This document shows, piece by piece, positions 2,513 through 45,897 of a DNA stretch of 64,000 bases. Each line of letters begins with the position of its first letter. Position 1 is the stretch's first letter. Location of the stretch: NCBI GenBank assembly GCA_964016885.1, contig OZ024742.1, positions 190,030,001-190,094,000 on the forward strand, given 5' to 3'. The stretch is from Eledone cirrhosa. Its lineage: Eukaryota. A program made the position numbers and the translations under genes. The notes beneath the pieces were generated by a model that made no database searches, was not told the DNA's origin, and saw only the letters and a list, made by a program, of their open reading frames with translations.

Positions 2513-2617
2513 TTTTATTAATTCACTTTTTTTTTTAAATTAGGTACTTTATTTTTGAATGTGCATATACTATTATATTGATTTAAAGTTGGGTCCTTTA
2601 TTTCTAAACTAACTAAA

Positions 2618-3207
2618 TAATTGTTTCTACTTTTGGCACAAGGCCAGCAATTATCCAGTGCATTACTGGTACTTTATTTTATCGATCCTATAAGGATGAA
2701 AGGCAAAGTTAATTAAATGATAATTGTTTCTACTTTTGGCACAAGGCCAGCAATTATCCAGTGCATTACTGGTACTTTATTTTATCGATCCTATAAGGAT
2801 GAAAGGCAAAGTTAATTAAATGATAATTGTTTCTACTTTTGGCACAAGGCCAGCAATTATCCAGTGCATTACTGGTACTTTATTTTATCGATCCTATAAG
2901 GATGAAAGGCAAAGTTAATTAAATGATAATTGTTTCTACTTTTGGCACAAGGCCAGCAATTATCCCAGTGCATTACTGGTACTTTATTTTATCGATCCTA
3001 TAAGGATGAAAGGCAAAGTTAATTAAATGATAATTGTTTCTACTTTTGGCACAAGGCCAGCAATTATCCCAGTGTATTACTGGTACTTTATTTTATTGAC
3101 CCCGTAAGGATGAAAGGCAAAGTGAACCTCGGCGGGATTTGAACTCAGACCATAAAGGGCTGTAACTCTTTGCTGCAAAGCATGGCGTCCGACACTCTAC
3201 CGATACT
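2618..3207 (-). repeat. SINE with its 3' half tandemly repeated (4 x 103-104 bp plus one full copy)
   Basis: TTGTTTCTACTTTTGGCACAAGG recurs at 2621, 2724, 2827, 2930 and 3034. Confidence 0.93.
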
Positions 3208-14106: not shown

Positions 14107-14338
14107 TTATGCTTTGACAGCAAACTTTCTGATTTTCCACAACATACGTCTCTTAGTTTGCCTATGTGTCATCAAAGATTTCTCTTTTGGTGTCAGCTCT
14201 CTTCGCATGGCACGTGTCTTTTTTGGGCGCAGATCTTTAGGCTTGAATTTCTTGTTGCGGTAAAATTTGCGCAAATTCTCTTTCTGGGTCTGGTTGATGA
14301 CTGTCAATACTCGGGCAATCGATTTACGTACAACACGA
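14107..14338 (-). CDS. RPL35: RPL35 coding exon 4 ([16 protein letters not shown]...KFAVKA*)
   Basis: Acceptor cctttcag; corresponds to ORF 14107..14361; conserved [19 protein letters not shown] and [12 protein letters not shown]. Confidence 0.98.
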
Positions 14339-15543: not shown

Positions 15544-15605
15544 ATTTTAGATAACTTTGAAGCTTGTCCACCAGTCACTTTAGCAACTCGAAGATGAGCA
15601 AGTTC
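15544..15605 (-). CDS. RPL35: RPL35 coding exon 3 (ELAHLRVAKVTGGQASKLSK-I)
   Basis: Acceptor ttccag, donor gtaagt, 62 nt; contains the conserved LRVAKVTGG motif. Confidence 0.96.
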
Positions 15606-17088
15606 CTGGAATAATCACAAGATATCTATCAATGGTGAGATTTAATCATGTATGAAACATTAAAAAAAGCAAAGAGAAAGCATTATAACAAATATGTCAG
15701 TATGAGAGAAATGAAGTACTAGTAGAATCAATAATACTTTAGACACGGAGCCTTTCAGTATTCATTCTAGCTCTACCACATTCTCAGCTGAAAACCCAAT
15801 GTGGCCTACATGGATACCACCAGCAAAATCACTCTGATGTTAGCATGCGGTTAAGATCATAAGCAGTTGACCACAGTAATGTCAATAGCTAGCACACTTT
15901 TTTCTAGATATGCCCCTCTATGAAATCCCTGGCATTGAGGCATGCCCCAACCACCATGAGAGGCCAGAAGCGCTGGCATAGCTAGTGATAACCCACCCAT
16001 CCAGCCCTTGCTAACAAGGAAAACCATGTTAGATAACGACTTAACTGGATGAGATTTTAGACAATGCTGGCTACTTGAAAACCTACTGAAAATTCCTAAT
16101 CCTCTTTGCACCAACTTGCCTGTTTCTTTGAAACAAAACCACCCAGTTTAATTAGTTCATTGCCTCCAGAGAGTCATGGACACCACCACTCCAATCAAAA
16201 ATTTCTTTTTTAACCACTTATTCCTGGGAGAGTCAGAGGTAAAATCCTTAAACACACCTTCCAGCAGATCCTATCAGAAGCAAGACTAACCAGACTCATG
16301 GATGTTATCCAACTATCTGAGTTAAGAGTCAACCCTGGGTCTCCTGCCTGTTGGTTTTGTCCCTAAGTTTGCTCAGCGATTCCTTCCTGGGACACTCTAA
16401 CTACATGTCTGCAGTATCAAAACTGTAATTTCTCAATTTGGAGAATTAGCAGCTCTACCTCGAGCGACTCTGGCCTGTGGGCTATGCACTATCAAATAAT
16501 GTTAATCCAAAAACCCTTCGACGAACCCCATTTCGGCCACTTGTATTCCTATGATCATGACCAATGACCACAGGTTGGCTAGGAAATAGTGAGTTTGGCT
16601 TCTACACCTATTTCTGATGAGTGAATGCTGAAGCTGGCCCATTACTACGCCAGGTTATGTAATTCTTGCACTTAACTGCTGCATTCCATCACTCATAAAC
16701 ATGGTGATTAGCCAAATTAAAATGAAGAATAAATAACCCAAGTAGTATGTCAGGCGTTTGGTATTGGAAAAGCTTCTCAACAGTAGAAACTATGTAAAAA
16801 TGGAATGAGAAGACCCTTCAGCCACAACACTGGTGGCATGAAAAATGTACACAGTACCTACTGTGAGGTGTTTAAAGACAAGACATCTAGCATTAGGAAA
16901 TTCGCCAAAGAAGGAGAAGCCTTTAATTGTATCAAAGATATGACGACCTTCCTAAAGCCAAACAAGATGCAATGCCCAGCCCATCTAAGAGTTTAACGAC
17001 CCCAATAAAATGCTGATATGGTCTGTGTCCAACACTTGATAACAGGGAAAACTGAGAATAAAGTGACAATATTGTGAAAAATACTTAC

Positions 17089-17163
17089 ATTTTTAAGCTC
17101 CTTGACTTGTGTCAACAACTCCTCCTTCCTCTTGCCTCGGAGATCCTTAGCTTTCACTTTAGT
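17089..17163 (-). CDS. RPL35: RPL35 coding exon 2 (TKVKAKDLRGKRKEELLTQVKELKN)
   Basis: Acceptor gttgcag, donor gtaagt, 75 nt; matches the uL29 N-terminus. Confidence 0.95.
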
Positions 17164-19833
17164 CTGCAACAATAAAATTAAACATTTTTACTTGTAAATA
17201 AATCGCACCCCAGATATATATTGATTGCATGGAAAAGACTGCACAAAACTTTCATATAAAAAAATGTATAGAGAATGAGACAAGTGAGTTTTATGCAAAC
17301 TTAGTTATGTTCGATTATTTTATAACCTTGTGTTGTATGTCGCATTCTGTGGAAAAAAAGTGTAAGGTATTTGACTCAAGTCGAAGTAATGAGGTCAGGT
17401 CTTGAGCAAAGGACTATTTCACATGACTCTTGTCCACTCAACTGGCAAAAAATAAGTTATACCTGTAATCCAAAGGACCAGTCCTGCCACACTATCTCTT
17501 TGAGAATTTATATTATGGATACACATGCACGAGGAAAGCTAAGCAACTTGTACGAATAGGCTGTTCTGATGTTCGAATAACTGGAGCTCATCAGCAATGA
17601 GTCCAATGCAGATATAACTCACCCCAAACTCTTCTATTAAGCTCGTTATATTGAATTATAAATTTCCCAATTATGAACACAACTTAGAGACCTGTAGGCA
17701 TTTAAACTTTGCTTGTATTGTGAAAACAATCCTTTAATGTACGTTTACCAAGTAATGGTTGGGAGAGTGCATTTATCATAGCATTAGCACAAGGGAGGCA
17801 GGTTGAAGAATCCCACCTACCTTTCGTCTCATAAGTCCCTTTACAGGATGTACTGGGTCTATCTGTGGCACTAGCACTAAAAAGGCTGTGTCATTAATGA
17901 AGGGACCTCTTTATCGTACATAAAGGGGAATATGATGGTGAGGTAATCAGTAACTTCATTTGTGTTATTACAAAGCATACAATTCATTAGTGTGCCAACA
18001 CAGCAACACCACAGTCCTAATGAGCAGGTTTTTGAATGGCCACAAAATATTGTGGCAAAGCATATGTAATAACTTTGATGGTAATTGGCAGTATAAAGGT
18101 GAAGTGAAGTGCAGAGCAATTACAAATTATACTTAACACCCTGCAATGATTTAGCAGAAAATATCTAAAAACGGTTTCTTTACAAGGGGACAGATCAACT
18201 GATTACTCTAATACGTGTTCCAAGCCGTCATGAACATTCGCAATATCACAGAAATAGGTTTTAATGTGTCGTGATGCAGTCATTGTGCTGTTTAGTACTT
18301 TTCAAGAATGTCTTCCTAATATACACGACCACCCCAAAATTATTTTTAAAATGTTCTTGACACGAAATCTACACACCAAGTATTCTCAGTAAATAATCGA
18401 CCCCTTTATAATTAACGAATTTCTCAAGGGAATACATTTTCAGCCTGTAAGACCACTACACCAAAAAGTAACAATACGGTTTCACACGTAAGATTTAACA
18501 AGTTAATGTACCGTACCATAACTGCATCACGTTAAAGTTTTCACAAGGTATGCATATATACACACATATGGTCCAGTTTAAAATAGGGTATCCCTGTAAA
18601 ACATTTGCCTGAACAAATCAGCATGGAAAAGACGACGTAAAAATTGTTTTGTATAAGGGAGGCATGAGACATAACTCGGGGTGAATCGGATGTGATATTA
18701 AGATATCATTTTAAAATTCTACTGTTAACAATAACCTATAAATTCAGTTCTTTAATTACAAACAGATTAAAATTAATATTTTCTGTTTCACTCATTCCGC
18801 TTCGCGAATTTAAACAATTCGTATTTCGAAAATGTGGGAGCATCTACATAATAGGTGGACTTGCTAGAAATGACAACCAAATCCTGCCCATAGCACAGCA
18901 CAGGGATTAAATGTCGGAGATACCAATACTCTTATATTCCACACGTTAGATAGATTTGCGGCGTAGTAATTTAATTGCCGAAACGAAAAAATGCTTTTTC
19001 ACGCACACCTCACAGTTTAATATACCTATTCGAGTTGTAATTAAATTTTCGTCTTTGCAAACTGCTTCATCTAAGTATATATAGAGAGCATTCTTTAAAA
19101 AAAAGCACGTGTATTTAAAAGCAGTTAGCTTATAAGTATAAAATTAGAAATGAAACTACTATAATTTGTGTATAAGAAAGTGTATATTAGATTTAAGATG
19201 CATTTAGTAGACATTCAGCTTCAGATTTTTTATTAGAAACCTCCCTATGAAACCACAAAACAACTGAAGATGAATACAGTAGTTTATTCCGCACAGCAAT
19301 TGCCCATTTTAATTTAATGTTTAACTACACCATAAATCACTTTTACCTGTACATTTAACATCTTTCTCTATAAATGATTAACAAAACAAACACGAATCTA
19401 TATTATAGGAGTATTATATTTATAGAACCAGTAATCAGCGAAAAATCTGAAGACTCAGAGTAATATGTAATGGAGTGCATAAAATTATAGTAAATTAAAA
19501 TTGTGAAAATTATTAAACCTAAACAACTTTATATTATAACAAAAGAAAAAAAATCTAAATTTAATTGTTTTTAAGAATCTATTCATACATTATTTATTAT
19601 CATACTGATAAATTTTATTAAATGAAGATTTGATCAGAATACAACTAACGTGGTTGATACATGAAAATATTGATGTAAAAAAACTGTATAAAATATCCTT
19701 ATTTATTAGTAAAATGTAGATAAACAATATCACTGATAACGTAGGAATAGATATAACAGAAATATGTTAGTGAAATTGCAGAATTAGTATCAAGATTGAT
19801 TGAGATAATTTTTTAGAAGAAATTTTAACTTAC

Positions 19834-19836
19834 CAT
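19834..19836 (-). CDS. RPL35: RPL35 coding exon 1 (ATG only)
   Basis: Minus strand reads ...cacaaagATG|gtaagt, ~30 nt downstream of a pyrimidine-tract start. ATG-only first exons are typical of ribosomal protein genes. Confidence 0.88.
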
Positions 19837-19856
19837 CTTTGTGAAGGTCTAATCCC

Positions 19857-19866
19857 TAAAAGGAAG
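19857..19866 (-). promoter_or_regulatory. TCT initiator / 5'TOP motif of RPL35 (CTTCCTTTTA)
   Basis: C-initiated pyrimidine tract 30 nt upstream of the ATG. Confidence 0.75.
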
Positions 19867-20431
19867 TAACAATATCTGTTACTGCGAACCTAACTGTACA
19901 TCCGGTTTTAGTAACTGAAGTACTTCAAAAACATCAAATATGTTTGTATTCTAATTAATTCTAATATCGATAAATACATAAATGAGAAGTTGATTCTTCG
20001 ACAAAAAATAAAATAGTAATTTTTAAAAATTATGTCTTTGAATAATTTTTCTTAATCCTTTACCGGAACTAGTATGAGGAATGTTATATAATCTTATTTT
20101 TATATCGTATTTCCCCGTACTAAAGTTGCTATAACTCAGTAGAAAAACGTTAAAATATAAACTAACGTTTAAATATATTTATCTCAAATAAAACAAATTA
20201 ATTTAAAAAAAAATGTATAATATTAGAATTTTAAAAATATTTTTATCATTTTTTTTTTATTTTTAATCGAATTCGAAACTAAGTTATTTCAAAAGTAAGT
20301 CATTTCCGGGGCGTGGAGCAGACATAATAATATCGTAACCGGTGGATTGGCTTAATTCTACCTCGTTTTATTAACTAAATTCTCTGGAATTTTTATATAT
20401 TATATCTATATATAACTTTTTAAAAAAGACC
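19867..20431. promoter_or_regulatory. Putative bidirectional promoter of RPL35/ARPC5 (includes ARPC5 5'UTR)
   Basis: Lies between the divergent genes and is free of transposon fragments. Contains a DRE-like TATCGATA at 19965-19972, ETS-like CCGGAA at ~20064, and TTCCGG followed by GGGCGTGG at ~20304-20317. Confidence 0.65.
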
Positions 20432-20571
20432 ATGTCAAAAAACACAGGTGCCAGTCTATTTCGTAGTTTCAATGTCGATGATTATGACGAGGACAAATAC
20501 CAAGACGATCTAAAAGAAGACCAGAAAGAACAAGGACTGAATTACAGCGAAGTGGTGAATTTTCTCAACGC
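20432..20571 (+). CDS. ARPC5: ARPC5 coding exon 1
   Basis: MSKNTGASLFRSFNVDDYDEDKYQDD... resembles the ARPC5 N-terminus (MSKNT..FR..DVDEYDE). Ends in phase 2 at the U12-type donor GTATCCT. Confidence 0.93.
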
Positions 20572-20855
20572 GTATCCTCATATATAAATATGTTTGTGAG
20601 TGTGAAAACGTCTGTGTTAGTGTATTTATTTATTTATTTATTTATTTATATATATATATATATAAATAAAGAGAGAGAGAGAAAGACATGTAATGTGTTT
20701 ATGTATGTGTGTAATGTGTTAGTGTCAACCACACCTTTTTTTTCTCAGACCTAATTTCTGACTGTTTGTGGACTCTTATAATTACAAATCTTAACTTTTC
20801 TGTTGTCTTTACATACACACTCACACACAAATCGTATCTTGATTAAAGCACTAAC

Positions 20856-20898
<43 letters not shown>

Positions 20899-21074
20899 CT
20901 CCCGAATGAAACAGATATATATAGTTATAAAATATTTCTTCTTTTAAATTACTATGTTGTTAAGCCTTGTTTTACTGAAATAACAGTTTTAATTATATAA
21001 AATGACAATATAAAGTTCCGAGTTCTTTTATTAGTTATATCTCCCAATCTACCGCCACCCCGTTCATATTCCAC

Positions 21075-21628
21075 CGAAGTTGACTTTGCCTTTCATCATC
21101 ACGGGGTCGATAAAATTAAGTACCAGTAACACACGGGTCAATATAACTTATTTTCCCCTCCCTAAAAATTGCTGGCCTTGTGCTTAAAAATGTATATTAT
21201 TATAGGCTATTATTTATATTGTATCGGTAGAGGGTCGGACGCCATGCTTTCCAGCATAGTTACGTCCCTTTATGATCTGAGTTCAAATCCCGCCGAGGTT
21301 GACTTTGCCTTTCATCCTTACGGGGTCGATAAAATAAAGTACCAGTAATGCACTGGGTAATTGCTGGCCTTGTGCCTAAAGTAGAAACAATTATTTATAT
21401 TGATCGACTATTATTTTGCTCATTTGTATTGGCACGAATAGTTTTCAATCTTTATAAGGCTGTGTAACATGTTATGAAGTATCTTAACTACATTCTAAAG
21501 TTAAGTTCTCTCCGGCACATCCCGACAAGGTTAACTTTGCCTTTTATCCTTACGGGGTCGATAAAATAAAGTACCAGTAATGCACTGGGTAATTATTTAG
21601 CTTTGTGTTAAAAGTAGAAACAATTATT
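21075..21628 (+). mobile_element. Three tandem-oriented SINE copies/fragments in ARPC5 intron 1
   Basis: Central domain at ~21083, ~21303 and ~21535. Confidence 0.88.
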
Positions 21629-21925
21629 GTATTATTATACTGAACTGCTTTCATAAGAAATATCTCAACATGCATGTCACACACACACACACACACACAC
21701 ACACATTTATCTGTCAATCCGTCTGTCGGTCTCTCTCTCTCGTTCTCTTTCTATATATATATAACCCCCCCCCCCCCCCTCACTCTCAAGCGTGAAACTA
21801 ATATTAACATTTTGTACTGCCTCTTCGCTTCCTCGTTGTTGTTTTTTTGTTCCAACTATTATATATATAATATATATATAAAACCCTTTTTGTACAGCCG
21901 ACAATGTTAATCTTCACTCTTTCAC

Positions 21926-21965
<40 letters not shown>

Positions 21966-22046
21966 TCCGTATGTGGTTGGCGGGGCTGAGAGAAAAGAAT
22001 ATTCAATAGAGTTTTAATATTCATTTTATTATGGCTAAATAGTGAG

Positions 22047-22094
22047 TCTTATTACTCTGGAGTTTCGCCCGTTTATCACGGCCATCAGACAAGA
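22047..22094 (-). ncRNA. Minimal hammerhead-ribozyme-like motif (degenerate; probable Penelope-like pLTR)
   Basis: UCUUGU-CUGAUG-GCCGUGAUAAACGGGC-GAAA-CUCCAGAG-UA-AUAAGA. Stems I, II and a short stem III pair; the core lacks one A of CUGAUGA. Confidence 0.65.
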
Positions 22095-22714
22095 ACTGTG
22101 TGCATGATTACATATATACAAGCGAAAGAAAGGAGCACTAATACTTTTTTTACAATATATATATATATTTATATATAAATAGTTGAAAATGAACAAACAA
22201 AACACAGGAGGCAATATTATACAGTTATATTAGATTCACGCCTGGAAGAGATTTCGATATATATAATGTGTGTGTGTTTGTGTAAACTTAAACATTGAGG
22301 TACTTAAAGTTTAACCGGTGTGAGAAAAACCCATTTCTGTGAAACTATTTATACAAATGTACATATCACAGCATCTCTTGTCGAGTTAGAATTGGTATTC
22401 AACTGACATTAAGTTTGTGATGACACTCTTTATAAACTTTGTAGGGCTTAGTAGAGATTCTTATCACATTGGTGGACAAGTTCTGTTATAATTCCCTTAG
22501 CATATTGGATGCCTTGTTTTAAATGATAGCTGTTTTGTGTGTGACTCTTCTTAGCCACACTTATTTAACTCTCATGTTTTCAGTTGTTTGTGGGATGGGA
22601 CTCATTGACGTATGCCAAGAGTTAAAGGTCTCCAGTTTTAGTTTTGTTGCAAGTTAGTTTTGGGTTGAATTCCTTGCTCTTTTGTATCTTTCATTACTAA
22701 GCGGAATGAATAAT

Positions 22715-22748
<34 letters not shown>

Positions 22749-22755
<7 letters not shown>

Positions 22756-22890
22756 AGATTCGACCTGGTCGACCGGCCTGAGCTCAGCCGTCGGAGTCCT
22801 GAATCTTTTCATATTACCCACTCTAGTACCCCAAGTATCGAGTACTCTTGTGCGTTATGGTCCACTTTATATCTTACCACACCCTGTATA
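22749..22890 (+). mobile_element. (TA)n-associated short element, family A (other copies 59227-59447 and 62192-62300)
   Basis: Shared TACCC.AAGTA..GAGTACT..GTGCGTTAT.GTCCAC....TCTTACCACA; each copy starts with an inverted self-duplication. Confidence 0.8.
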
Positions 22891-23504
22891 TTTAACAATA
22901 TACAGGATGTTTATGAAATACAAATTATATATATCTTTGACTAAGCTGTAGTAATCAGGATGTTTGTGTGTATATATTTATATAAACATCCTGGTTACAG
23001 CAGCTTTACCAAAGAATCTGTTATTTCTTCAATAACTATTATAAAGAATTATGTATGCTTTTTTTTTTCTAGTTTTCCACGATTTCTTGACCATTTAAAC
23101 ACGTTGTCATCCACATTCATTCTTCCTCTCTTTCTCTCTCTCATTCTCTCTTCACGTTCCATCCCTGTCAAACACCTGACGTAGTGTCAACGAGACTGAC
23201 TCATTGATAGTACATTACTCAATTAGTTGACGGCGACAGCTCATTATCTAGGCAACCATCTCTCAACTACCTTTGTATATATATCATCTGCTAAAAACCT
23301 TCGGCCATTTTTTTTTCTCTCCTTTTATATAACGAGTTCAACGCCCTCCTTTTCTCATCTCATCGATTTTATCACGTATCGATTTCTGAAGTGGTTAATG
23401 ACAGTTGTGAATTTGAAACCTTAATGTGTGGATATAAGTGTATGCTATTTATCTATCATCATCATTTATCGTCCGTTTTCCAAGCTTGCAAGGATGGGTG
23501 GGTG

Positions 23505-23554
<50 letters not shown>

Positions 23555-23556
<2 letters not shown>

Positions 23557-23762
23557 TTATTAAAATAATAGATTAAAGTTTAAGCAAAGAATCGCTGCTT
23601 TCACCCTTAAGATCCCGTTAAGGGTGAAAGCAGCGATTCTTTGCTTAAACTTTAATCTGTTATTTTAATAAATTTTTGCTCTACGGTTCTTATATATTTG
23701 ATATATATTTATCCTTATCGAGCCCTCTTTGGATTTTAGTCTTCAAATTTATTATTATTACT
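23555..23762. mobile_element. (TA)n-embedded fold-back element, family B (related pieces at ~50141-50198 and ~63519-63602)
   Basis: 56-bp arms at 23555-23610 and 23618-23673 with 1 mismatch and a 7-nt loop; TA repeats on both sides. Confidence 0.85.
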
Positions 23763-24461
23763 ATATATATATATATATATAGTAAAAATAACGGAGAAAA
23801 AGACTCGCGTATAATCCTGTAATTAAATAGTTTTCCTGGGCACTTTAAAATACAATATATAGAGGGGAAAGACAGAAGAGTGTGTTTTTTTCATTCCTGT
23901 AATGAAAAACACACTCTTCTGTGTCTTTCCCCTTTACATATATATATATATATATATCATCATCACGTCCGCTTTTCCATGTTTGCATGGGTTGGACTAT
24001 ATATATAAACAAGTATATCGATGGAAAAATCAACTTCTATCATTTAAAGAAACATTTATTTCCTTACTCATGTTTCGATGAACATCCAATTATTTGAAAT
24101 GTTATATGAAACATTGCGCATAATAAATAAATAAATATATTATGGAATACTGTTGGCTTCTTGCTACAATAATTTCTATACTTTTCATTTATATATATAT
24201 ATATATATATATTCGTTCTTGTCCTTGACACGAGGATTTGTGTCAGTAGTGCATGTGATCAATACATTCTGTTATCTCTCAACTTCTAGTGCACGTAATA
24301 GTGAATAGTAGTTTAGTTTTGTTAATTGGTAATTAATCTCTTTAGGTCAGCCTTGATTGGGCTGACCTATGATGAAAAGCATTCTAACCGTAACCATCAT
24401 GTTTTTTCCCCTCTGTGTAGAGAGAATCCAGGACTATATTATCGACATTATAATTGGTGGA

Positions 24462-24643
24462 TTGGCAGTATCGGTAGAGGGTCGGGCGCCATGCTTTGAA
24501 GCATAGTTACCTCCCTTTATGACCAGAGTTCAAATCCCGCCGAGGTTAACTTTGCCTTTCATCCTTACGGGGTCGATAAAATAAAGTACCAGTAATGCAC
24601 TGGGATAATTGCTGGCCTTGTGCCAAAAGTAGAAATAATTATA
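24462..24643 (+). mobile_element. SINE copy
   Basis: Full head, body and tail. Confidence 0.9.
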
Positions 24644-26977
24644 ATCAATTTCTAAAACAGTAGGGTGTGATTTCAGGGCGATATAGCTGCTATTTCTAGC
24701 AAACTTAGTGACCACGATGAACTCCTACTTTGACAGGACGACAATGAATGTTTCTTGTAGATAGCTTGTTATTGCTATTGTTTAGCCCCCAGGTCAGACT
24801 TAAGTAAGCTGACCTATGATCAAAGGTATTCGTACCATGATCATCATGTAGTTTTCTCATGTGTAGGAATCCGAGACTACATTATCCACAATGTGTTCAT
24901 TTGTAAGACCGTAGGGGGTGATTTGAGGGAGACTTGGCTGCTAATTTCTATCAGCATATTTAAATGAAGTTGTTTAGTCCCACTCAGGTTAGCCATGATT
25001 TCTATCAGCTCCTGTGACCATGAAGAGGTTCCCACATTGACAAGGCATTACATTTGTTATTGTTTAGACCTAGGTAAGCCTTGACTTTGAACCCAGAATA
25101 CTGAGAGCCTGAACATATGCCACAAAACATTTAATAGGAATTAGAGAGAGAGAAACAATGCAACACGTACTCTCATTGATACAACGATAGACTATGAGGT
25201 GTTTATGCGTGAGTGTGTCCCCGTGAAACATATATGTATATACCCCGGGTCTGAACACTAGAGAACAAAACTCTCACTGCCTCTGTCTCTCCCACTCTCC
25301 TCATCTCTCAATATTATGAGCAAATGGGGGCCCACAGGCTTGTTGCCCCGCAGTCCCAGTGGACAGAATGGAAAAGGCGTTTCTTCGGAGGATGTTGAGG
25401 GAGACGCGCTAGAAGAGCTATTTCAGCTCATGACGCTAAACATTTAACCAGACCCTAATGACTCTACTAATTTGCAGCCTTTTTGCTATAATACATAACT
25501 TTTATTCCTCATCTTTAAAATGCTGTAACAGCTAGCAAGTATTTAGCTTTTATATCATTAATTATTTATCTTTTAATTATAACCTAATTAGATGAGCTAA
25601 TTAGGTCATAGCAGTGACTCTTTTACATTTCATGCTGTTTTTCAATACATCCCCTCTTTAAGAGGATTCTTCAGTTGTGTCAAGTACAAGGCAACCTCCC
25701 TAGTGTTGATACCATGTAAAATGCGCCCAGTACACTCTGTAAAAGAAAGGAAAAAAGGGGGTAGGGGAGAAGGTGACAGACTGTACAGCTAGCTAGCAAT
25801 CAGCGACTGTAGGATTGATAAGCTGTGGCATAACTAAAGTGTGTGCTGCCCTTGAATTTGCCTACCACCCCTCAAATATATACAACAGACCCAAAAGTAT
25901 CACCTTGGCTGGACTGTCACTCTTTCATCCTTCTTTAGCTACACTACTGTTCATGGGACCCTTTAGTCCTGCTGAGAACATGACAACTTCTTTAGTGCTG
26001 GTGCCATATTAAATGGGGTCTTTTAGGAACAGCATCCAGCCATAAAAAACACATTCCAAAATATGAATGTAAGTCTTGGTCGTCTGTTCTGTCTTGGAGG
26101 TCTGTAATGACTTGTATAACCCATACTGGTAATGTAAAACAAATGCAAAGTTTGGTGATGATAATGATGATAGTGGTAGTAAAAAACTGATGGTGGTGGT
26201 AAAAAAACTGATGGTGGTAGTAAAAAAACTGATGCTGTTCAAAACTATTAATGTTCTTAATGCCAAACTTTCTGAAACTATTCTTGGTTCTACTATACAA
26301 AACTGTTTGTTTTAAAGAGTTTATATAAAACCTCCCTTCATAATTTCATGTAAAAATCTTTGTTCCAGACACTAGGTAAAAAATGAGAAAATGAGTTATA
26401 TTAGTAAACCCTTCTGAATTCTTTTTTATTTGCAAGATTATTTGAAAATTACAAGTATTTTTTTCATTTAGAAATGCCTCACAAAAAGTTATTTATATAA
26501 AATCTTCCCACAATTTAATGTAGGCTTCAAGTTCTGTTCCAAACACCAAGTAAAAAATGAGAGAAGTAGTTATATTACTAAATCTTTCCAAATTCTTGTT
26601 TATTTTCAAAATATAACAAGTATTATTTATTTATGGAATATATCATGTAAATATAGTTTAATAGAAAAAGAAAGGAAGAAAATTTAGATTGAGAAGAAAG
26701 AATGGAATGAAAATCATAGGCATTGTCTTTCATTAGGTATATGGTAACAAAAGAGCTAAAATGTTTATATTTATATAAAAACCTCCCATAATTTTATGTA
26801 AGAAGCTTTGTTATGTTTCAAACATTAGATAAATAATCAGAATGTTTGTAACTTTTATTAAATCCTTCTAAATACTTAATTACTTCAAATATTATTTGAG
26901 AATCACAGGTAGTGTATTTTCATTAGAAATATAGTAAAGAAAGAATTAATAGTGGTTGCAAAATATGTATATATTTA

Positions 26978-27160
26978 ATAATTGTTTCTACTTTTGGCAC
27001 AAGGCCAGCAATTATCCAGTACATTACTGGTACTTTATTTTATCGACGCCGTAAGGGTGAAAGGCAAAGTTAACCTCTGCGGGATTTGAACTCAGATCAT
27101 AAAGGGACGTAACTCTATGCTTCAAAGCATGGTGTCCGACTCTCTACCAATACTGCCAAT
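26978..27160 (-). mobile_element. SINE copy
   Basis: Full length, reverse orientation. Confidence 0.9.
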
Positions 27161-29618
27161 CCTCTATTTAATGATATTAGCTGCAAATGTTGCAATAAAG
27201 AGAAGTAGGAGGAGAATGGAAGGATGAGGAAGAGATTTAATTAGATGTTTATTTTCTTTTAGATAAGTTTGTTTAGATGATGAATTACACCCACTCACAT
27301 TCTGCACAATGGGGGTTTGTTTTGCCAGTAATTTGGTCTACTTCCTACCCTTCTATTTTGGTTGGAGTTACTGTCAGTCTGTATAGTTTTCTTTCCACAT
27401 CTATTTACACTGATTATTAACCCCTTTGGTTATTTCTTTTAAAAAAATGCTGCCTAATATTTTCAAATCAATTTGAAAATAATAAAAAATTTGGAGGTAT
27501 TTAGTAATATAATTAACTTTTTCGCTATTTAGCTGGTGTTTGGAACATAACTTAATCCTTTAGCATTTAAACTGTTCAGACCAACTGTTCAGACTGGCTG
27601 CTCACACTGATGTATTGTTCTTAAAATAAATAATATAAAAATCTCATTGATTCAATATTATGTGAGATAAAAAATACAATAGTATATATAATGTAAATGT
27701 TAAACGGTTAACAAAGGTTCATACATAAAATTATGATTGAAGGTATTTAGATAAATATTTAAACCCTTCATTAACATAATTTTGATTATTAGCTGGTGTT
27801 GGGAACATAATTTAAAAAAAATTCTTACATAAAATTATAATGGAATATTTTTAGAAAAATTTTTAAACAGTTTTGTATCTTAGAACCAGGTTTTAGATGA
27901 TTTGGTATAAAAAAAAGATTTAAAAGATGTGTGTATGATGGAGAAATGTCAGAATCGTTAGAGCATCAACTGGACCTTGTATTCTGAGTTCAAATCCCAC
28001 TGAGGTCAACATTACCTTTCATTCTTCCAATGTTGTACCACTGTCTAACCCATGCTAGCATGGAAAATAGACGTTAAACGATTCTGATGATGGTGAAATC
28101 ATTAGAGCCTCAGACAGGATACCTTGCAGTATTTGTTCTGAGATCAAATCCTGCTATGCCATGTTTGGGTTACCTAATCCATCGCTCAGTTTAATGCTAC
28201 CAACTGACCCTTGGGTGCCTTTAGTAAACTCTATACTGTTGCAAGCCTTCAAATCAGGTCTCTAGTTTGACTATATCTTCTTCTGTTCCTCTCATCTGTC
28301 TTCCTAATTAAAGGTCATGGCCCTTGCTCTTCCTCCTAATTGTTATTGCTACTGCCCTTTATCCTAAATGTTATGGCCTCTGTCCTTTGCCCTAATGGTC
28401 ATGGTCTCTGCTCTTTGTTTTAACTAAGGCTCATGGACTCTAACTAACCAATACTTAGGTAATTCCCACTTTCTTCTGATAAGTCATTCATATGAGTCAG
28501 TGTTTCCCAACGTTGGTTCCAACGTGCCACAGTGTTCTGCCAAAAATGTTGAGGTTTTGTGAGATAAAGTGTCTTTTAATGAAATTTAATTTAAAAAAAA
28601 ATATGAGATAATTCTTTTCCTTTTCGCTCACTTATTCCTGGGAGTATCATGGAAGCAGAGTCCTCAAACATGTCTTCCAGCAGGTCCTGTCAGAAGCTAC
28701 TGTCTCCAATTGATCTGGCTGGATCCCTAAGTGAGACCATCCAAACTCTTGGATGTTATCCAGCCATCTTGCTCAGTGCCTACCTTTTGTCTCTTGCCAG
28801 TTGGTTTTGCCCATAAAATCTCTCCAGTATTTCTTTCCTGAGACATTTTAACCACATGCCCATAGTATTGGAACTGTGATCTCCCAATTTGGAGAAGTAG
28901 TGGCTCTACCTGGAGTGACTCTGATCTGTGCTAAGCACTCTATTGAGTAACATTACTCCAAAGACCCTTTGGAAGAACCCCATTTTGGCTGCTTGTATTC
29001 ATGATCGTATTCTTTCGGTCATTACCCACGACTCATTACCACAGGTTGGGGTTTGCATGAATACAAAATTGAAGCTAGCGAGTTTAGCTTATATATCTTC
29101 CCCAATTCTGATGGCTGAATACTGAAGCTGACACATTACTGCACTAGATCCTGCAATTCTTGCACTTAATTTAGCCTCTTGCTGTCCATCACTTGTGAAA
29201 AAAATAACACAATTCAAATTTCAAATTTTCTCGATGCTTCTGAAACCAACCCCTTTGTTTACACTTCTAATAAAAATTTATATTCTTTATATATGAATAA
29301 ATTTTCTGCACAATTGTGTATCTGTAGGAAGTAGAAAACCTTGCCACCTACACCATATCTGCTATCCTAACCATATGATACTGCTAATGTTTTAATATGT
29401 CAAACAATGGCAGGTATATAATATAATATATATATCATCATCATTTAACGTCTATCTTCCATGCTAGCATGGGTTAGACGAGAATTGTCCCATTTGAAGT
29501 GACCGTGTCTTGCTCGTATAGGACTGTATATATAATATAATATATATATTTGTATAATATATATAACATATATACATATATACATATATATATTGTTTAT
29601 CCTATTTGCATTCACCCC

Positions 29619-29654
<36 letters not shown>

Positions 29655-30029
29655 CATGCTAGCGTGGAAGATAGACGTTAAACGATGATGATTATAAGAT
29701 GAATATAAAGCTAATAATTTTCCCCCTGAGTCAGCCTCTTTCTAAAGCGTGTCACACATTGTTGTGTCAGTTACTAGGTTTCTGTTGTCTATTCTTTATT
29801 TTACCCTCTGTTCATCTAGGTGACATCCATTATATATTATAAACTGACATCATATATTCAGTTAATTACTATGCCCAACCCATCTACGTATAGACGCTTA
29901 ACAACATAGCCAAATCCCAATTACAGATATAGAATGGTTAAGTAGTGCATGTATCAGAAGTGTGAGACTGTCTGGTAGTCAATAATAAACACTGGTCAAA
30001 TGTATAGTTTAGGCCTCTAGAAATGGTAA

Positions 30030-30325
30030 GTCTCATGTCAGTTGTAAAATATACGTCTTCAAAACTGGTATTGTATCCAGATATAATGTAAACTGTAACC
30101 TCGCCCTCAAAAACAAAACAAAAATGCTGTTTATATATGGAGACCAATTTAAAATGTAGGTCTCCAATGCTGGTAATGTAAAATGTAGCCCTCCAGTTCT
30201 GGTAATAGGTCCAGGCCAGATGTAAAATGTATGTCCCCAAATGCTAGTAATAGATTCAGGCAAAATGTAAAATGTTGGGTCTCCAAAGCTGGTAATAGAC
30301 CCAGGCTAGATGTAAAATGTAAGTA
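30030..30325. repeat. Degenerate ~44-bp minisatellite
   Basis: Recurrent TGTAAAATGT....CTCCA..GCTGGTAATAG..CCAGGC.AGA. Confidence 0.65.
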
Positions 30326-31516
30326 GAGGTCCAAGATAATTTCGTTAAATTAATAGAACATAATTAGTAACAATGATATCAAGAGAATGCTGACAACATT
30401 CTGGCACTCCCCTTTTAATAAGTATGTCATATGGCTGCTGTTGATCCTGGAATGAAATATAACCATTCTTGTGTTCTCTTTTCTCTATCTCTCACTGTTC
30501 CATCTGATTTCTCCTTTGGAAAATCTATACTCTATTATTCTTTTTCATTCATTCTCACTTTCCTGACATTCCCACATTCTTTTATTCTCTCATCACTCTC
30601 TCTATAATATTTATGCGCTTACTCTGGCTGTTTAAGTGTTGGATAAAATACATGGTGATATTTGTTCTCGCTCTGGCTTTCTTTACTCTGAATTCAAATC
30701 CTATCAAGATCCACTTTGCCTTTCATCCTTTCAGGTTAGCAGAGGATGGGGATGGGCATGATTACTTACCATATATACTCAAATATAAGCCAAGGAATAT
30801 GTGACCAAAAAAAATCGATGGTGAAATGGTTGGAGCCTTATATACGCCATCTAAACAGTGTGTTGATTAGCTGCCATTTTGGATTTTTGCTCATTTTTAT
30901 CAAACATAAGATAGGGAGTCAGCTTCTATTCTGATTGGCTTATATTTGAGTATATATGGAAGTACTTGCATAATGCCGGTGTAGCTCTTTTTACCTCCAG
31001 CTGTCACATTCTGGAAATTCCACAGGATCAAGTGTCAGAGTTGAGAGGTCTGCATATGTGTCTGTCACCCTGGCTATATGTCTTCCACTATAGCCTCTTC
31101 CTAACCAATACTGTGAGGAAGCCTGTTATATAGTAGCTAGTTAACTAAGTGTAATCGTAACACAGCTTTCCAGCATATAGACAGATGTGAGTTCACTTCT
31201 CACAGGCAATTATCCACTTTTTTCCACCTCAAGGTCTTATATCTCTGTTTTATTCACAACTATTTTATAATGATAATCCATGTATTATGGTTCTTTGCTC
31301 AATAGCAAAAGCATATCATCATCATTATCATCATCTTTTTATGCTGTCATGGTTTGGCTGGGACGTTTTGAGGCAGTGTTTAACGGCCAGAAGACTCCCC
31401 TGACACTAACCCTTTTAGTCACTCCTTATGGCATGTTGGGATGTGAACTACCTATTCTAAATCAAATAAACACAATCATTGTGTATATATGTATATATAT
31501 ATATATATATATATAA

Positions 31517-32168
31517 GAGGGATCAGATGTTGTTTACTCGAGAGAAGGCTACGTTGGTATGGACACGTGATGCGCATGAAAGTCGATAGCTGTATAACAA
31601 AGTGCAGGGCAATAAAGATAGACGGTAGTCACGGAATAGGCAGACCTAGAAAAACCTGGGACGAGCTGATAAACTCCGACATCACACACTTACACCTCTC
31701 CAAGACAATGTCACTGGACCGAGACCTTTGGCGGTACTCAGTAACAGAGAAGACCCGCCTTACCTAAATATATAGTAAAACCTACTCCAGCCAGTAGGCA
31801 TCTCTAACAAACTACACCCCGTCCCGCCACCACCCCCACCCGATCCACACCACCCCGTTCTATGTAAAGTTATGTTGGTGCCGCGCCATCGAGGCCGAAA
31901 CAAATGAGATCGTGTAGGTGTCACGACAAAAAAACACACAGTCCACGCTGTAATGTGGCCGTGTAGGCAACACGGTAAAAACCTCCCAGACCCACACTGT
32001 AAATGTGGTTGGTGTTAGGAAGGGCATCCAACTGTAGAAAACCTGCCAGACAGTCCTATGCGAGCAAGACAATCACTCTTGCCTCAAGTGGGACTACCCC
32101 CGTCCAAACCCATGCAAGCGTGGAACACGGACGTTAAACGTTGATGATGATGATGATGATGATGATGA
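31517..32168 (+). mobile_element. RTE LINE 3' end with (GAT)n tail
   Basis: RGIRCC..ERRLRWYGHVMR..GRPRKTW..DRDLWR; tail GATGATGATG. Confidence 0.9.
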
Positions 32169-32248
32169 TATACAAATGGAAGTACAGCATAATCGAAGCT
32201 CTGGCTGCAGCTAAGCTAACGAATGCAATCGGAATGTGCAGATATATA

Positions 32249-32905
32249 TCATCATCATCGTTTAATGTCCATCTTCCATGCTAGCATGTGTTAGATGGTT
32301 TTGTTTCATTTGATGTGAGAATGGTCGGGAGACCATGTCTCACTCGTACGGAAGTGTCTCTGGCAGGATTTTTTACAGCTGGATGCCCTTCCTAACACCA
32401 ACCACATTTACAGTGTGGACTGGGAGCCTTTTTACTGTGTCTCCTACATGGCCACCTTACAGTGTGGACTATTGTGTCATTGACACAGTGAATGGAACGG
32501 AAAAGGGAGGATGGGCGTGGGGTGTACATTGGCTTAAGAGGTGCCTACTGACTGTAGGTTTGTATGCAATGGCAGTCAGGTCTTCTGTACAACTGCATGG
32601 TGTCAAAGATCTTGATCCAGTATCATTGTATTAGGGAGGTGTAAGTGAGCAGTGTCAGGTTTTATCACCTCGTCTCAGGTTTTACTTGGTCTACCCATTC
32701 CGTAGCTTCCATCAATTTTCATTGTTCTGCACTTTTCTATACAGTTGTCGTCCTTCATACGCATCACATGGCCATACCAATGCAATCTCCTCTTCAGAAC
32801 ACAACATTTGATAGCGCTTATGCTTAGTCTCTCTCTCAATTCGTTTATGCTTCGCTGTTCACGCACATTATTATTACACATCCATTGGAGCATGCAAGCT
32901 TCATT
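32249..32905 (-). mobile_element. RTE LINE 3' end, inverted relative to the 31517 copy
   Basis: MLQWMC..ELRERLSI..RLHWYGHVMR..GRP. Confidence 0.88.
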
Positions 32906-33667
32906 TTCTTTCTAGTCTAACTATCTGTAATACAAACTTATAGTAACATGACAAAAGAACACCTAACCCTCACAGCAAAAGCATCCAGTCCACACTGTGT
33001 ACAGGTCATTTTGGAACCGTGACAAAAATGCCCAGCCCACACTGTAAAGTGGTTGACGTTAGGAAGGGCCTCCAGCCATAGAAACCAAGCCAGAAACAGT
33101 TGTGTGAGCAAGACATGGTCTTCTGAATTGACTTGTCTTACAATGGGACAATTTGTCTAACCCATGCTAGCATGGAAAAATAGACATCAAATGGGGGTGA
33201 TGATGATGGTATATATATATATGTGTGTGTTTGTCTCTTCTCTTTGCCTTAAACATTACAATCAATGATATTCATATATATTCTGCATAAAAAAGATTCT
33301 TCTCATTGGTTAGACATTTGAAGATCTGTACTGTATTTAAAAAATAAAATAATCATGTGGAGGGTTGCATGTTGACGTCAGGAAGGGAAAACAACCAGTG
33401 AGTTATGCTCAAAAATATTTCATCCAACCCACAACATGAGGCAAAGTGCAAATAAGAGCAGCAGCTACAAACTCCCCTTTGCATCAATGGCCAACCAGGG
33501 AAGGCTCGCTATAGAAAGTGTAGCATGAATGGCAGTGCCCCAGCATGGCCTCAGCCCTTTAGTTGGAACACGTAATAGAGTAATAGTCCAATCCAAGCCT
33601 GCATGGAAAATAAATGTAAAACTGATATTGATTATGCAGAGTATCTTCCTTAATATTGTTCTTTCAG

Positions 33668-33734
33668 GGGTAAGAATGCAGATGCCTTGATTCACATCCT
33701 TAATAACCCACTTGCTGACACAAAAACTTCCAGG
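33668..33734 (+). CDS. ARPC5: ARPC5 coding exon 2 (GKNADALIHILNNPLADTKTSR)
   Basis: Preceded by a U12 branch site and ctttcag, followed by gtaagt. Aligns to vertebrate GNMTAALQAALKNPPINTK, and the phase is compatible with both neighbours. Confidence 0.85.
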
Positions 33735-35843: not shown

Positions 35844-36020
35844 GACAAAACTTCCCAACTGACAACGAAAGTTCTCACATCATTCCGAGGCAATGATATA
35901 GACACGGCAGTGGATGGTCTGACTTCAGTACAGATTGACATGTTGATGAAATACATTTATATAGGTTTTGAGTTCTTCTCAGAAGGTAGCAGTGCCATAT
36001 TGTTGACATGGCACGAAAAG
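35844..36020 (+). CDS. ARPC5: ARPC5 coding exon 3 (DKTSQLTTKVLTSF...LLTWHEK)
   Basis: Acceptor ttgatag, donor gtaagc, 177 nt; contains the signatures DMLMKYIYIGFE and [11 protein letters not shown]. Confidence 0.97.
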
Positions 36021-36059: not shown

Positions 36060-37580
36060 CTTTTTCTTCAGCCACTTATTCCTGTGAGGGTTGGTTGTGT
36101 GGGAGGAATCCTCAAACATTCCTTCCAGCGAGGCCTGTCAGAAGTAACTGTCTCAAACTGATCTGGCTGGATCCCCAAGTGAGGCATGCCAAGCTCATGG
36201 ATGTTATCCAACCATCTTGCTTAGGGTCTATCGCTGAGTCTCCTTTCAGTTGGTTTTGCCCGTAAAATCTGTCCAGCGATTCTTTTCTGAGACATTCTAA
36301 CCACATACCCATAATATCAGAGCTGTGATCTCTCAATTCAGAGAAGTAGCAGCTCTATCTGGAGTGACTCTCTGATCTCTGAGCACCACACGAGTAATGT
36401 TACTGCAAAGAGCTTTCAGAAGCGCCTCATTTTGGCCGCTTGTATTCACGATTGTATCTTTTCAGTCATTACCCAAGATTCATGACCATAGGTAAGGGTT
36501 GGCACAATACCGAATTGAAGATAGTGATTTTGGCTTTTACACCTACCTCCCTTCTTTTAATTACCGAATGCTGAAGCTAGCGCATAACTGCACTGGCTCT
36601 TGCAATTCTTGCACTTAATTCAGCCCTCTGTCTTCTATCACTTGTCAACACAGCCTTGAGATCTTGAGATACTTGAACTTCTCCACCTGCTTCAGAATGC
36701 ACTGTGCTGCAAACTTCCTTGAGAGGACGAGTATCTCAGTTTTCGCAGCACTGGTTTTCATTCCAGCTTTTCAGCACTTGACATCAAATCTATCAAGTGC
36801 AAGTCGGAGATCATCTTCTGTTGAGTTAAGTAACACCATGTCATTTGCAAATTCCAGCTGACTGATTTTACACCCACCAGTCATGATACCACTTCCAGCT
36901 CGGTTGCGCATGTCAATCTTGTTCATAAAAATAATGAACAGGAAAGCTGATAGTACGCACCCTTGTCGGAGTCTAACTCCCACATTGAATGGTTTCGATC
37001 TAGTACCATTTATCCAAACACAAATACTAGGGCATTCACATAGAGACATCAGGCCAGCAAGAAACTGACCATCAATCCCATACTCCAGCACAAACCTCCA
37101 CAGCAAGTCCCGAGGAAAACGGTCATAAGCCTTTTTGAGGTCTACAAAGCAAGAATATATCTCTTGGCAATACACCAATATCTCGAAGACCTGCTGTCCT
37201 GTCTCTGGGGTGAAAACCGTATTGTTCATCAACTTGCTTGGAATTGACAATCTCCCTGTATCTCTTTGCCAGACACTCAGCATAGACTCTCTAATTAGAA
37301 CAATCTCCCTTGTCTCCCTTTTTGAAAATTGGGATTATCACTCCTGATTGCCATTGCTTAGGTCCCTTTCCAGAATGCCACATGAGTCGGCCAGAGAATG
37401 CCACACGAGTCGGCCAGAGAATGCCACACGAGTCGGCCAGAGAATGCCTTCTTTATTTAAGGCTTTTAACATCTTGGGCCGGATTTCATCTTGCACAATT
37501 GCCTAGCCATATTTGAGCTCTTTAACTACTTTTGTGACTTCAACCTCTGAAAGATTAGTCACCGCTCCAAGATGCACCTT
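36060..37580 (-). mobile_element. RTE-clade (Rex3/Expander-like) LINE remnant with RT domain, in ARPC5 intron 3
   Basis: ORF 36771..37283 CFVDLKKAYDRFPR..EYGI..VGVRLRQGCVLS..LF..EFANDMVL; an internal 23-bp x3 tandem lies at 37373-37448. Confidence 0.9.
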
Positions 37581-43700: not shown

Positions 43701-44490
43701 TAGTCTAGCGAGACTAGAAGCTAGTCTAGCGAGACTAGAAGCTAGTCTAGCGAGACTAGAAACTAGTCTAGCGAGCCTAGTAGCTAGTCTAGCGAGCCTA
43801 GAAGCTAGTCTAGCGAGCCTAGAAGCTAGTCTAGCGAGCCTAGTAGCTAGTCTAGCGAGACTAGAAACTAGTCTAGCGAGCCTAGAAGCTAGTCTAGCGA
43901 GCCTAGAAGCTAGTCTAGCGAGCCTAGAAGCTAGTCTAGCGAGCCTAGAAGCTAGTCTAGCGAGCCTAGAAGCTAGTCTAGCGAGCCTAGTAGCTAGTCT
44001 AGCGAGCCTAGTAGCTAGTCTAGCGAGCCTAGTAGCTAGTCTAGCGAGCCCAGAAGCTAGTCTAGCGAGCCCAGAAGCTAGTCTAGCGAGCCCAGGAGCT
44101 AGTCTGGCGAGCCTAGTAGCTAGTCTAGCGAGCCTAGAAGCTAGTCTAGCGATCCTAGAAGCTAGTCTAGCGAGCCTAGAAGCTAGTCTAGTGAGCCTAG
44201 AAGCTAGTCTAGCGAACCTAGAAGCTAGTCTGGCGAGCCTAGGAGCTAGTCTAGCGAGCCTAGAAGCTAGTCTAGCGTGCCTAGGAGCTAGTCTAGCGTG
44301 CCTAGGAGCTAGTCTAGCGTGCCTAGGAGCTAGTCTAGCGAGCCTAGGAGCTAGTCTAGCGAGCCTAGGAGCTAGACTTATGTATCTAAAAACTAGTCTA
44401 GTGAGTCTAGAAGCTAGTCTAGTGAGTCTGGAAACTAGACTGATGTATCTAGAAACTAATGTAGAATCCTGACTAGTGAGTCTAGAAACT
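37727..44490. repeat. ~6.7-kb tandem array of a 21-bp CTAG-rich unit (about 320 units)
   Basis: Consensus GCTAGTCTAGCGAGCCTAGAA with GTA/GAG/GGA variants; diverged units at both edges. Confidence 0.98.
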
Positions 44491-45834: not shown

Positions 45835-45897
45835 GTTTTTGCCGTCGGTGGTTTGGGCTCAATAATTCGTGTGCTGACAGATCGCAGTAGAGTGTAA
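45835..45897 (+). CDS. ARPC5: ARPC5 coding exon 4 ([20 protein letters not shown])
   Basis: Acceptor tttatag; conserved C-terminal GGxGSIxRVLT.R..V; a candidate AATAAA lies at ~46209. Confidence 0.95.
   Translation, partial: [20 protein letters not shown]

Follow-up and report, generated by a model that had tools for sequence, protein, structure and literature searches.

The 64,000 nucleotides of the Eledone cirrhosa genome analyzed here (the window) contain the gene for the ribosomal protein RPL35 and the gene for the Arp2/3 subunit ARPC5, placed head-to-head, one on each strand (Table 1). The ATG of RPL35 occupies positions 19836–19834 of the reverse strand, with GTAAGT directly after it, and the ATG of ARPC5 starts at 20432 on the forward strand. 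As read from the window, the two codons are 596 bp apart from A to A and have 595 bp between them. Both genes were modelled with four exons that remain open up to a single terminal stop. RPL35 codes for 123 amino acids, 120 of them identical to those of Octopus vulgaris and Octopus sinensis, and ARPC5 for 148, of which 136 are identical in Octopus bimaculoides. A search of the 3.0-Gb E. cirrhosa genome, the proteins of which have their nearest matches in Octopus and Argonauta, found a single locus for each gene. The segment 18145–20612, which includes both ATGs, was recovered as one read-derived contig at single-copy depth in three out of three runs (these share a single sample, possibly the one used for the assembly). 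Since this contig crosses both ATGs at single-copy depth the junction is not a misassembly, and the divergent geometry given in a preliminary description of this sequence is confirmed. As to gene structure, the RPL35 intron after codon 26 is found at 15606–17088, a position at which human RPL35 presumably lacks an intron.

By its open reading frames the pair appears to lie in a gene-poor stretch. A Pfam scan of 81 out of 131 ORFs of at least 80 amino acids, located in the outer window and in 40 kb at each side, found retroelement pieces, one low-complexity repeat and nothing else (short exons escape this kind of scan). A search against Rfam over 13.9–46.5 kb gave no match, and a sigma-70 scan, the model of which is irrelevant to a eukaryote, gave nothing above shuffles. 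Fragments of retroelement reverse transcriptase/endonuclease are found in ARPC5 intron 3 (36774–37334) and downstream of the window (L087:1443–4747). The same intron contains a 21-bp minisatellite of about 316 copies (37774–44438, 6.7 kb, 93% matches), whose unit length, a multiple of three, leaves both strands with open frames that reach up to about 1000 codons. Two more tandem arrays, at 172–831 (47 bp, 14 copies) and 2617–3123 (103 bp, five copies), have units that resemble pieces of a dispersed repeat recurring at 21100–21620 and 24460–24640.

Table 1. Features of the RPL35–ARPC5 locus, in window coordinates.
Feature	Positions	Strand	Remarks
RPL35 exon 4, coding part with stop	14107..14338	-	AATAAA at 14086-14081
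RPL35 exon 3	15544..15605	-	gene model
RPL35 exon 2	17089..17163	-	gene model
Stretch without self-repeat matches	18171..21061	.	2.9 kb, wider than the spacer; self-repeat comparison
RPL35 exon 1	19834..19862	-	predicted 26-nt 5' leader beginning in the pyrimidine tract, plus the ATG alone
ATG-to-ATG spacer	19837..20431	.	595 bp, 24% GC, CpG obs/exp 1.82, no repeat match; likely shared promoter region
TCT-like / 5' pyrimidine tract TCCTTTTA	19857..19866	-	7/8 to YYCTTTYY
DRE-like palindrome TATCGATA	19965..19972	.	one of two in the window; ~100 bp upstream of the TCT-like tract
ETS-like CCGGAA	20063..20068	+	motif scan
Very AT-rich centre	20180..20279	.	10-12% GC, A9 and T10 runs; composition
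Second ETS-like CCGGAA, 20309-20304 (-), overlapping GC-box-like GGGGCGT, 20308-20314 (+)	20304..20314		motif scan
ARPC5 exon 1, coding part	20432..20571	+	gene model
ARPC5 intron 1, putative U12-type	20572..33667	+	13,096 nt, GT-AG, 5' GTATCCTC, branch site TCCTTAAT at 33647-33654
ARPC5 exon 2	33668..33734	+	gene model
ARPC5 exon 3	35844..36020	+	gene model
ARPC5 exon 4, coding part with stop	45835..45897	+	gene model

Composition and motifs of the spacer

The most prominent property of the spacer is its CpG content, with 16 observed where 8.8 are expected. The ratio of 1.82, over a window median of 0.56, is the highest in the window and was attained by only three of 635 sliding windows, all of them overlapping the spacer. 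Unmethylated promoters usually leave high values of this kind, and the peak seems to us a stronger promoter sign than the TCT, DRE and ETS motifs pointed out in the preliminary description. CpGs occur throughout the spacer except between 20170 and 20265. What we find is a CpG-rich, unmethylated-looking stretch with ETS/GABP-type sites (CCGGAA, with an uncorrected P value), as expected for a bidirectional promoter. GABP, an ETS factor, is bound at more than 80% of human divergent promoters (PMC2077898).

The spacer is also devoid of self-repeat matches, which agrees with its description as transposon-free. The claim that its surroundings are otherwise saturated with repeats was overstated: the repeat-free stretch extends well beyond it (Table 1), self-matches are likewise lacking in 20% of all 595-bp windows and, between 13.9 and 21 kb, 22 of the 30 depth bins are at background and six at repeat depth (run X1, 95% likeness).

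Ten motifs were tested against 2000 dinucleotide shuffles of the spacer. The DRE palindrome (one in the spacer, P 0.027), CCGGAA (two sites, out of four in the window, P 0.019, uncorrected) and the GC box (P 0.011, for a motif picked after being seen) were mildly enriched. The DRE-like and ETS-like motifs described before are therefore present but weak, at P values of about 0.03 and 0.02 with ten motifs tested. Among four copepod-like spacers DRE was found in none and CCGGAA in one, only at the RPL35 pyrimidine tract, so that no shared element is visibly conserved. With regard to the TCT start, the tract upstream of RPL35 agrees at seven of eight positions with YYCTTTYY, the Drosophila consensus (PMC5580651), but the strict patterns, YYC(+1)TTTYY or YC(+1)TYTYY, have no match upstream of this gene. 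In three copepod-like RPL35 genes the tract that aligns with that of the octopus scores 8/8 and is located 30–36 nt before the ATG. Because of this the octopus tract likely works like a TCT element and marks the start; the beginning of the RPL35 leader in Table 1 was placed from these matching tracts. Given the ATGs at 596 bp, the divergent starts are likely less than 1 kb apart, although ARPC5 could have an upstream non-coding exon.

A putative minor intron in ARPC5

Judging from its splice signals the first intron of ARPC5, a feature absent from the preliminary description, would be of the U12 (minor) type. The consensus for this class is RTATCCTTT at the 5' end and a branch site TCCTTAAC located 10–20 nt before the 3' end (PMC8199999). 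In the octopus gene the first seven of the nine nucleotides of the 5' splice site GTATCCTCA match, and the branch site TCCTTAAT agrees at seven of eight positions, with the branch A located 14 nt before the intron end. The other five introns of the two genes all begin with GTAAG. The E. cirrhosa genome contains a full U12 snRNA (128 bits), as the use of such a branch site by a minor spliceosome would require. Its gene (L082:1501–1650) is on the same contig as the window and has a branch-pairing region complementary to TTCCTTA of the ARPC5 intron.

The same U12-type 5' signal was detected at this position of ARPC5 in seven of the 16 related loci examined, with a variant in one more, and the intron is absent from five. 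The loci sharing the signals with the octopus are insect-like and annelid-like. The copepod-like ones are without the intron, and the three copepod-like contigs that carry RPL35 (see below) are among the five, in line with the loss of minor introns reported in copepods (PMC10639083). In one arthropod-type ARPC5 (L038:866–870) the place of the minor intron is apparently taken by a GT donor of the major type; a U12-to-U2 conversion may have occurred. We also considered that the minor intron and the gene pairing formed a single module. This idea is weakened by copepod-like loci that have the pair without the intron and by insect-like ones that have the intron without the pair; as the two were lost independently, they are probably not one module.

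The pair in other genomes

We have looked for the pair in database genomes by using the length of the source contig that protein matches carry and their accession numbers. By convention, consecutive accession numbers correspond to neighbouring genes and we took them as such, although they give no orientation. RPL35 and ARPC5 came from contigs of identical length in 13 of 13 comparable entries. The accession comparison covers the species among the matches listed, 14 in all; echinoderms, Capitella, Priapulus, the limpet and the squid fall outside. Accessions were consecutive in seven: three octopods (O. bimaculoides, XP_014782799/800; O. vulgaris, CAI9726500/501; Argonauta hians, GAB1606448/449), two bivalves (Mactra antiquata, KAL4229905/906; Dreissena polymorpha, KAH3838385/386) and two tubeworms (Ridgeia piscesae, KAK2192312/313; Lamellibrachia satsuma, KAI0227521/522). 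In the oyster Saccostrea cucullata they are two apart, with both genes on one 216-kb scaffold. They are far apart in five species, namely O. sinensis (49), Liolophura (325), the brachiopod Lingula (1332, both genes on one 572-kb scaffold), Mercenaria (different annotation rounds) and Pinctada (locus tags 004292 and 009677, 5385 apart). The fourteenth species, Tachypleus, is without numbers. Gaps between RefSeq accessions were rejected as a sign of breakage, given the gap of 49 in O. sinensis when its close relatives have consecutive numbers. The separation in Pinctada may be a real break of the pair. In cattle the published order is WDR38, RPL35, ARPC5L and GOLGA1 (PMC8624223).

Metagenome contigs provided loci in which the orientation can be read. 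We kept 80 of 207 confirmed ARPC5 loci and then left out 69, either for want of exon 1 or because the sequence upstream of the ARPC5 start was shorter than 1.8 kb. Nine of the remaining 11 fall in the arthropod clade of the tree (with rough support values); the other two, L049 and L072, have long branches, are probably non-bilaterian and are without RPL35. Three of the nine arthropod-type contigs, all copepod-like, carry RPL35 upstream of ARPC5 on the opposite strand, with the ATGs 643 bp (L050), 762 bp (L057) and 2906 bp (L041) apart. A protein named after a scaffold that groups with these three is presumably from Tigriopus, to go by its identifier. In L041 (7095–10001) an intact RRP8-type methyltransferase gene (PF05148) is located between the two and is divergent to RPL35, the ATGs of RRP8 and RPL35 being 852 bp apart, with ARPC5 next in tandem behind about 660 bp of upstream DNA of its own. 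By family, the RRP8-type methyltransferase is a ribosome biogenesis factor.

The pair is breakable. RPL35 is absent from the available flank of 2–10 kb in six of the nine informative arthropod-type contigs (at least 1.8 kb upstream), one of which is copepod-like and has ARPC5 head-to-head with a DnaJ gene instead (L062:339–2188). Three of these six loci are intronless and could be retrocopies.

The human genome has a similar arrangement, which the preliminary description had pointed out and which is borne out by a published catalogue. Wong 2020 (PMC7530604 Table S2) tabulates 52 head-to-head human pairs that are ancient and co-expressed, and RPL35=ARPC5L occupies row 27. The entry (CoReg_ID 27, '81.0 [RPL35=ARPC5L]') gives as its source Irimia 2012 (PMC3514665), and conservation in three non-vertebrate species, out of at most eight for that source. 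High co-expression in comparison with matched neighbours was the selection criterion for the human pair (PMC7530604, PMC3514665). Altogether, adjacency of these orthologous, non-paralogous genes is found in several major animal lineages (molluscs, annelids, copepod-like crustaceans and vertebrates), and the 5'-5' orientation in the window, in all three contigs with both genes and in human.

An ancient pair

A bilaterian origin is the simple explanation for an adjacency that human, molluscs, annelids and copepod-like crustaceans have in common, and we consider it very likely that the arrangement was inherited from the bilaterian ancestor. The opposite view, that the octopus and human arrangements have separate origins or that the octopus junction is an artefact of assembly, deserves next to no credence. 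Apart from the losses in some arthropod-type loci we have found nothing that speaks for it, and it is effectively refuted by read-derived contigs that cross both ATGs and by an adjacency that recurs in four phyla, the orientation being the same in every readable case. The human catalogue entry, the mollusc and annelid accessions and the copepod-like contigs thus support the bilaterian microsynteny proposed in the preliminary description; this is, however, already published, and the RPL35–ARPC5 pairing is a catalogued ancient animal pair and not a new one. Our data widen it with cephalopods, bivalves, tubeworms and copepod-like crustaceans.

The octopus is unnamed in the entries for the pair of both catalogues, as far as these are available (PMC7530604, PMC3514665), and a literature search with the gene names plus synteny or octopus found no publication naming the octopus case. 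Neither did we find the pair in the accessible part of the supplement of PMC7817982, in that of PMC9023564, where blocks need three genes, or in that of PMC2871058, in which other identifiers were possibly used.

Its survival in an octopus had been presented as remarkable in view of the reshuffling of coleoid genomes. This is not supported by the published counts of ancient microsyntenic blocks still present, 275 in squid and 216 in scallop (PMC9023564), by which retention in a coleoid is ordinary. The octopus pair leaves views on the reorganisation of coleoid genomes unchanged.

What keeps the genes together

From the observed geometry, CpG peak, repeat-free spacer, motifs and adjacency in other phyla, we infer that the pair has probably been held together because a single short stretch of DNA, open and unmethylated, would serve two one-way core promoters. 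The standard model of a divergent promoter has two unidirectional core promoters placed around sites, or an open region, common to both (PMC5580651). Specifically, a TCT/TOP-type start at the left end of the spacer would fire leftwards into RPL35 and a GC-box/ETS-type start at the right end would fire rightwards into ARPC5, with the AT-rich centre remaining nucleosome-poor. Insertions or breakpoints anywhere in these 0.6 kb would usually damage one of two essential genes, which may be why the spacer stayed at 0.6 kb while the ARPC5 introns grew to 2–13 kb. The outcome would be broad housekeeping co-expression without a functional link, and lineages giving ARPC5 a promoter of its own would loosen or break the pair. 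In other words, retention was likely due to the dependence of both genes on one short promoter region, not to cooperation of their proteins.

Ancestral adjacency could also have persisted with two independent promoters that share nothing, simply because breakpoints seldom hit so short a spacer between two essential promoters. The intact RRP8-type gene in L041, where ARPC5 has its own upstream DNA, the DnaJ gene in place of RPL35 in L062 and the motifs that are not conserved across spacers fit this possibility, and the CpG gap is compatible with two separate halves. Human ARPC5L apparently has more than one promoter as well (PMC7836456). Still, we consider independent promoters rather unlikely. 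A neutral middle should have taken insertions, and the spacer measures 0.6–0.76 kb in a 3.0-Gb octopod genome and in two copepod-like contigs, next to introns of up to 13 kb; besides, the high co-expression by which the human pair was chosen speaks against them (PMC7530604, PMC3514665).

The preliminary description went further and proposed a functional coupling of RPL35 to Arp2/3, by which selection would keep ARPC5 on the RPL35 promoter so that the supply of Arp2/3 scales with ribosome production in growth. A single subunit is unlikely to determine the level of the seven-subunit Arp2/3 complex, and in related lineages the divergent partner has given way to RRP8 or DnaJ, or lies further off. 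In vertebrates only one of the two ARPC5 copies is still linked, the human ohnolog ARPC5 being unlinked to RPL35 according to the catalogue (PMC7530604), and among the publications listed as naming both genes none has a title or an opening of the abstract that concerns a link between the ribosome and Arp2/3. Our analysis, too, yielded no evidence for a regulatory connection of ribosome and actin. We therefore regard this coupling as very improbable, even if the pair persists across vertebrates, molluscs, annelids and copepod-like crustaceans and is highly co-expressed in human by the criterion of the source study (PMC7530604). A bolder version, distinctly unlikely too, would make the spacer a truly shared promoter, selected for more than 600 million years to match the supply of Arp2/3 (through ARPC5/ARPC5L) to the output of ribosomes; the minor intron that directly follows ARPC5 exon 1 would then serve as a throttle. 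If this were true, the octopus locus, which fits into 0.6 kb of a 3-Gb genome, would represent the arrangement at its most reduced, and the RRP8 insertion in a copepod-like lineage would indicate that a ribosomal-protein promoter has, on its divergent side, a slot in which growth-coupled genes are captured.

Between a shared promoter region and the mere persistence of a small target, the natural breakages found here (RRP8 inserted, DnaJ swapped in) make the locus a tidy test case for head-to-head pairs in general.

Comparison with known systems

The closest known system is the human RPL35=ARPC5L pair, made of the same orthologues, adjacent and head-to-head, and catalogued as likely sharing a bidirectional promoter. 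The octopus has one ARPC5 gene and human two ohnologs. In addition, the octopus ATGs are 596 bp apart whereas human ARPC5L seemingly has an additional, more distant promoter, at a distance that we take to be greater than the octopus spacing. A promoter of a human ARPC5L isoform is located within 2 kb of the start of a pan-essential gene (PMC7836456). An early compilation of human and mouse genes whose starts are separated by less than 1 kb does not include RPL35–ARPC5L (PMC1487180 supplements), from which it would seem that a main start of human ARPC5L is at a greater distance; this absence counts against a strictly shared promoter. Human ARPC5L also contains a U12-type intron (PMC3958305). 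The octopus gene thus has a minor-type intron like a human member of the same family, in its case one of 13 kb and of the GT-AG kind. Both are presumably located at the same codon.

More generally, RPL35–ARPC5 resembles HSPE1–HSPD1 and other 5'-5' microsyntenic pairs in being divergent, with a short spacer, housekeeping and conserved across phyla (PMC3514665). The class is common, 5'-5' pairs making up 54.8% of the conserved pairs in human and 68.6% in Lottia (PMC3514665). HSPE1–HSPD1 differs in that its partners act in one complex, its bidirectional promoter has been tested and the pair goes back to Capsaspora and fungi (PMC3514665). RPL35 and ARPC5, in contrast, are functionally unrelated genes, and their pairing has been lost in several arthropod-type loci.
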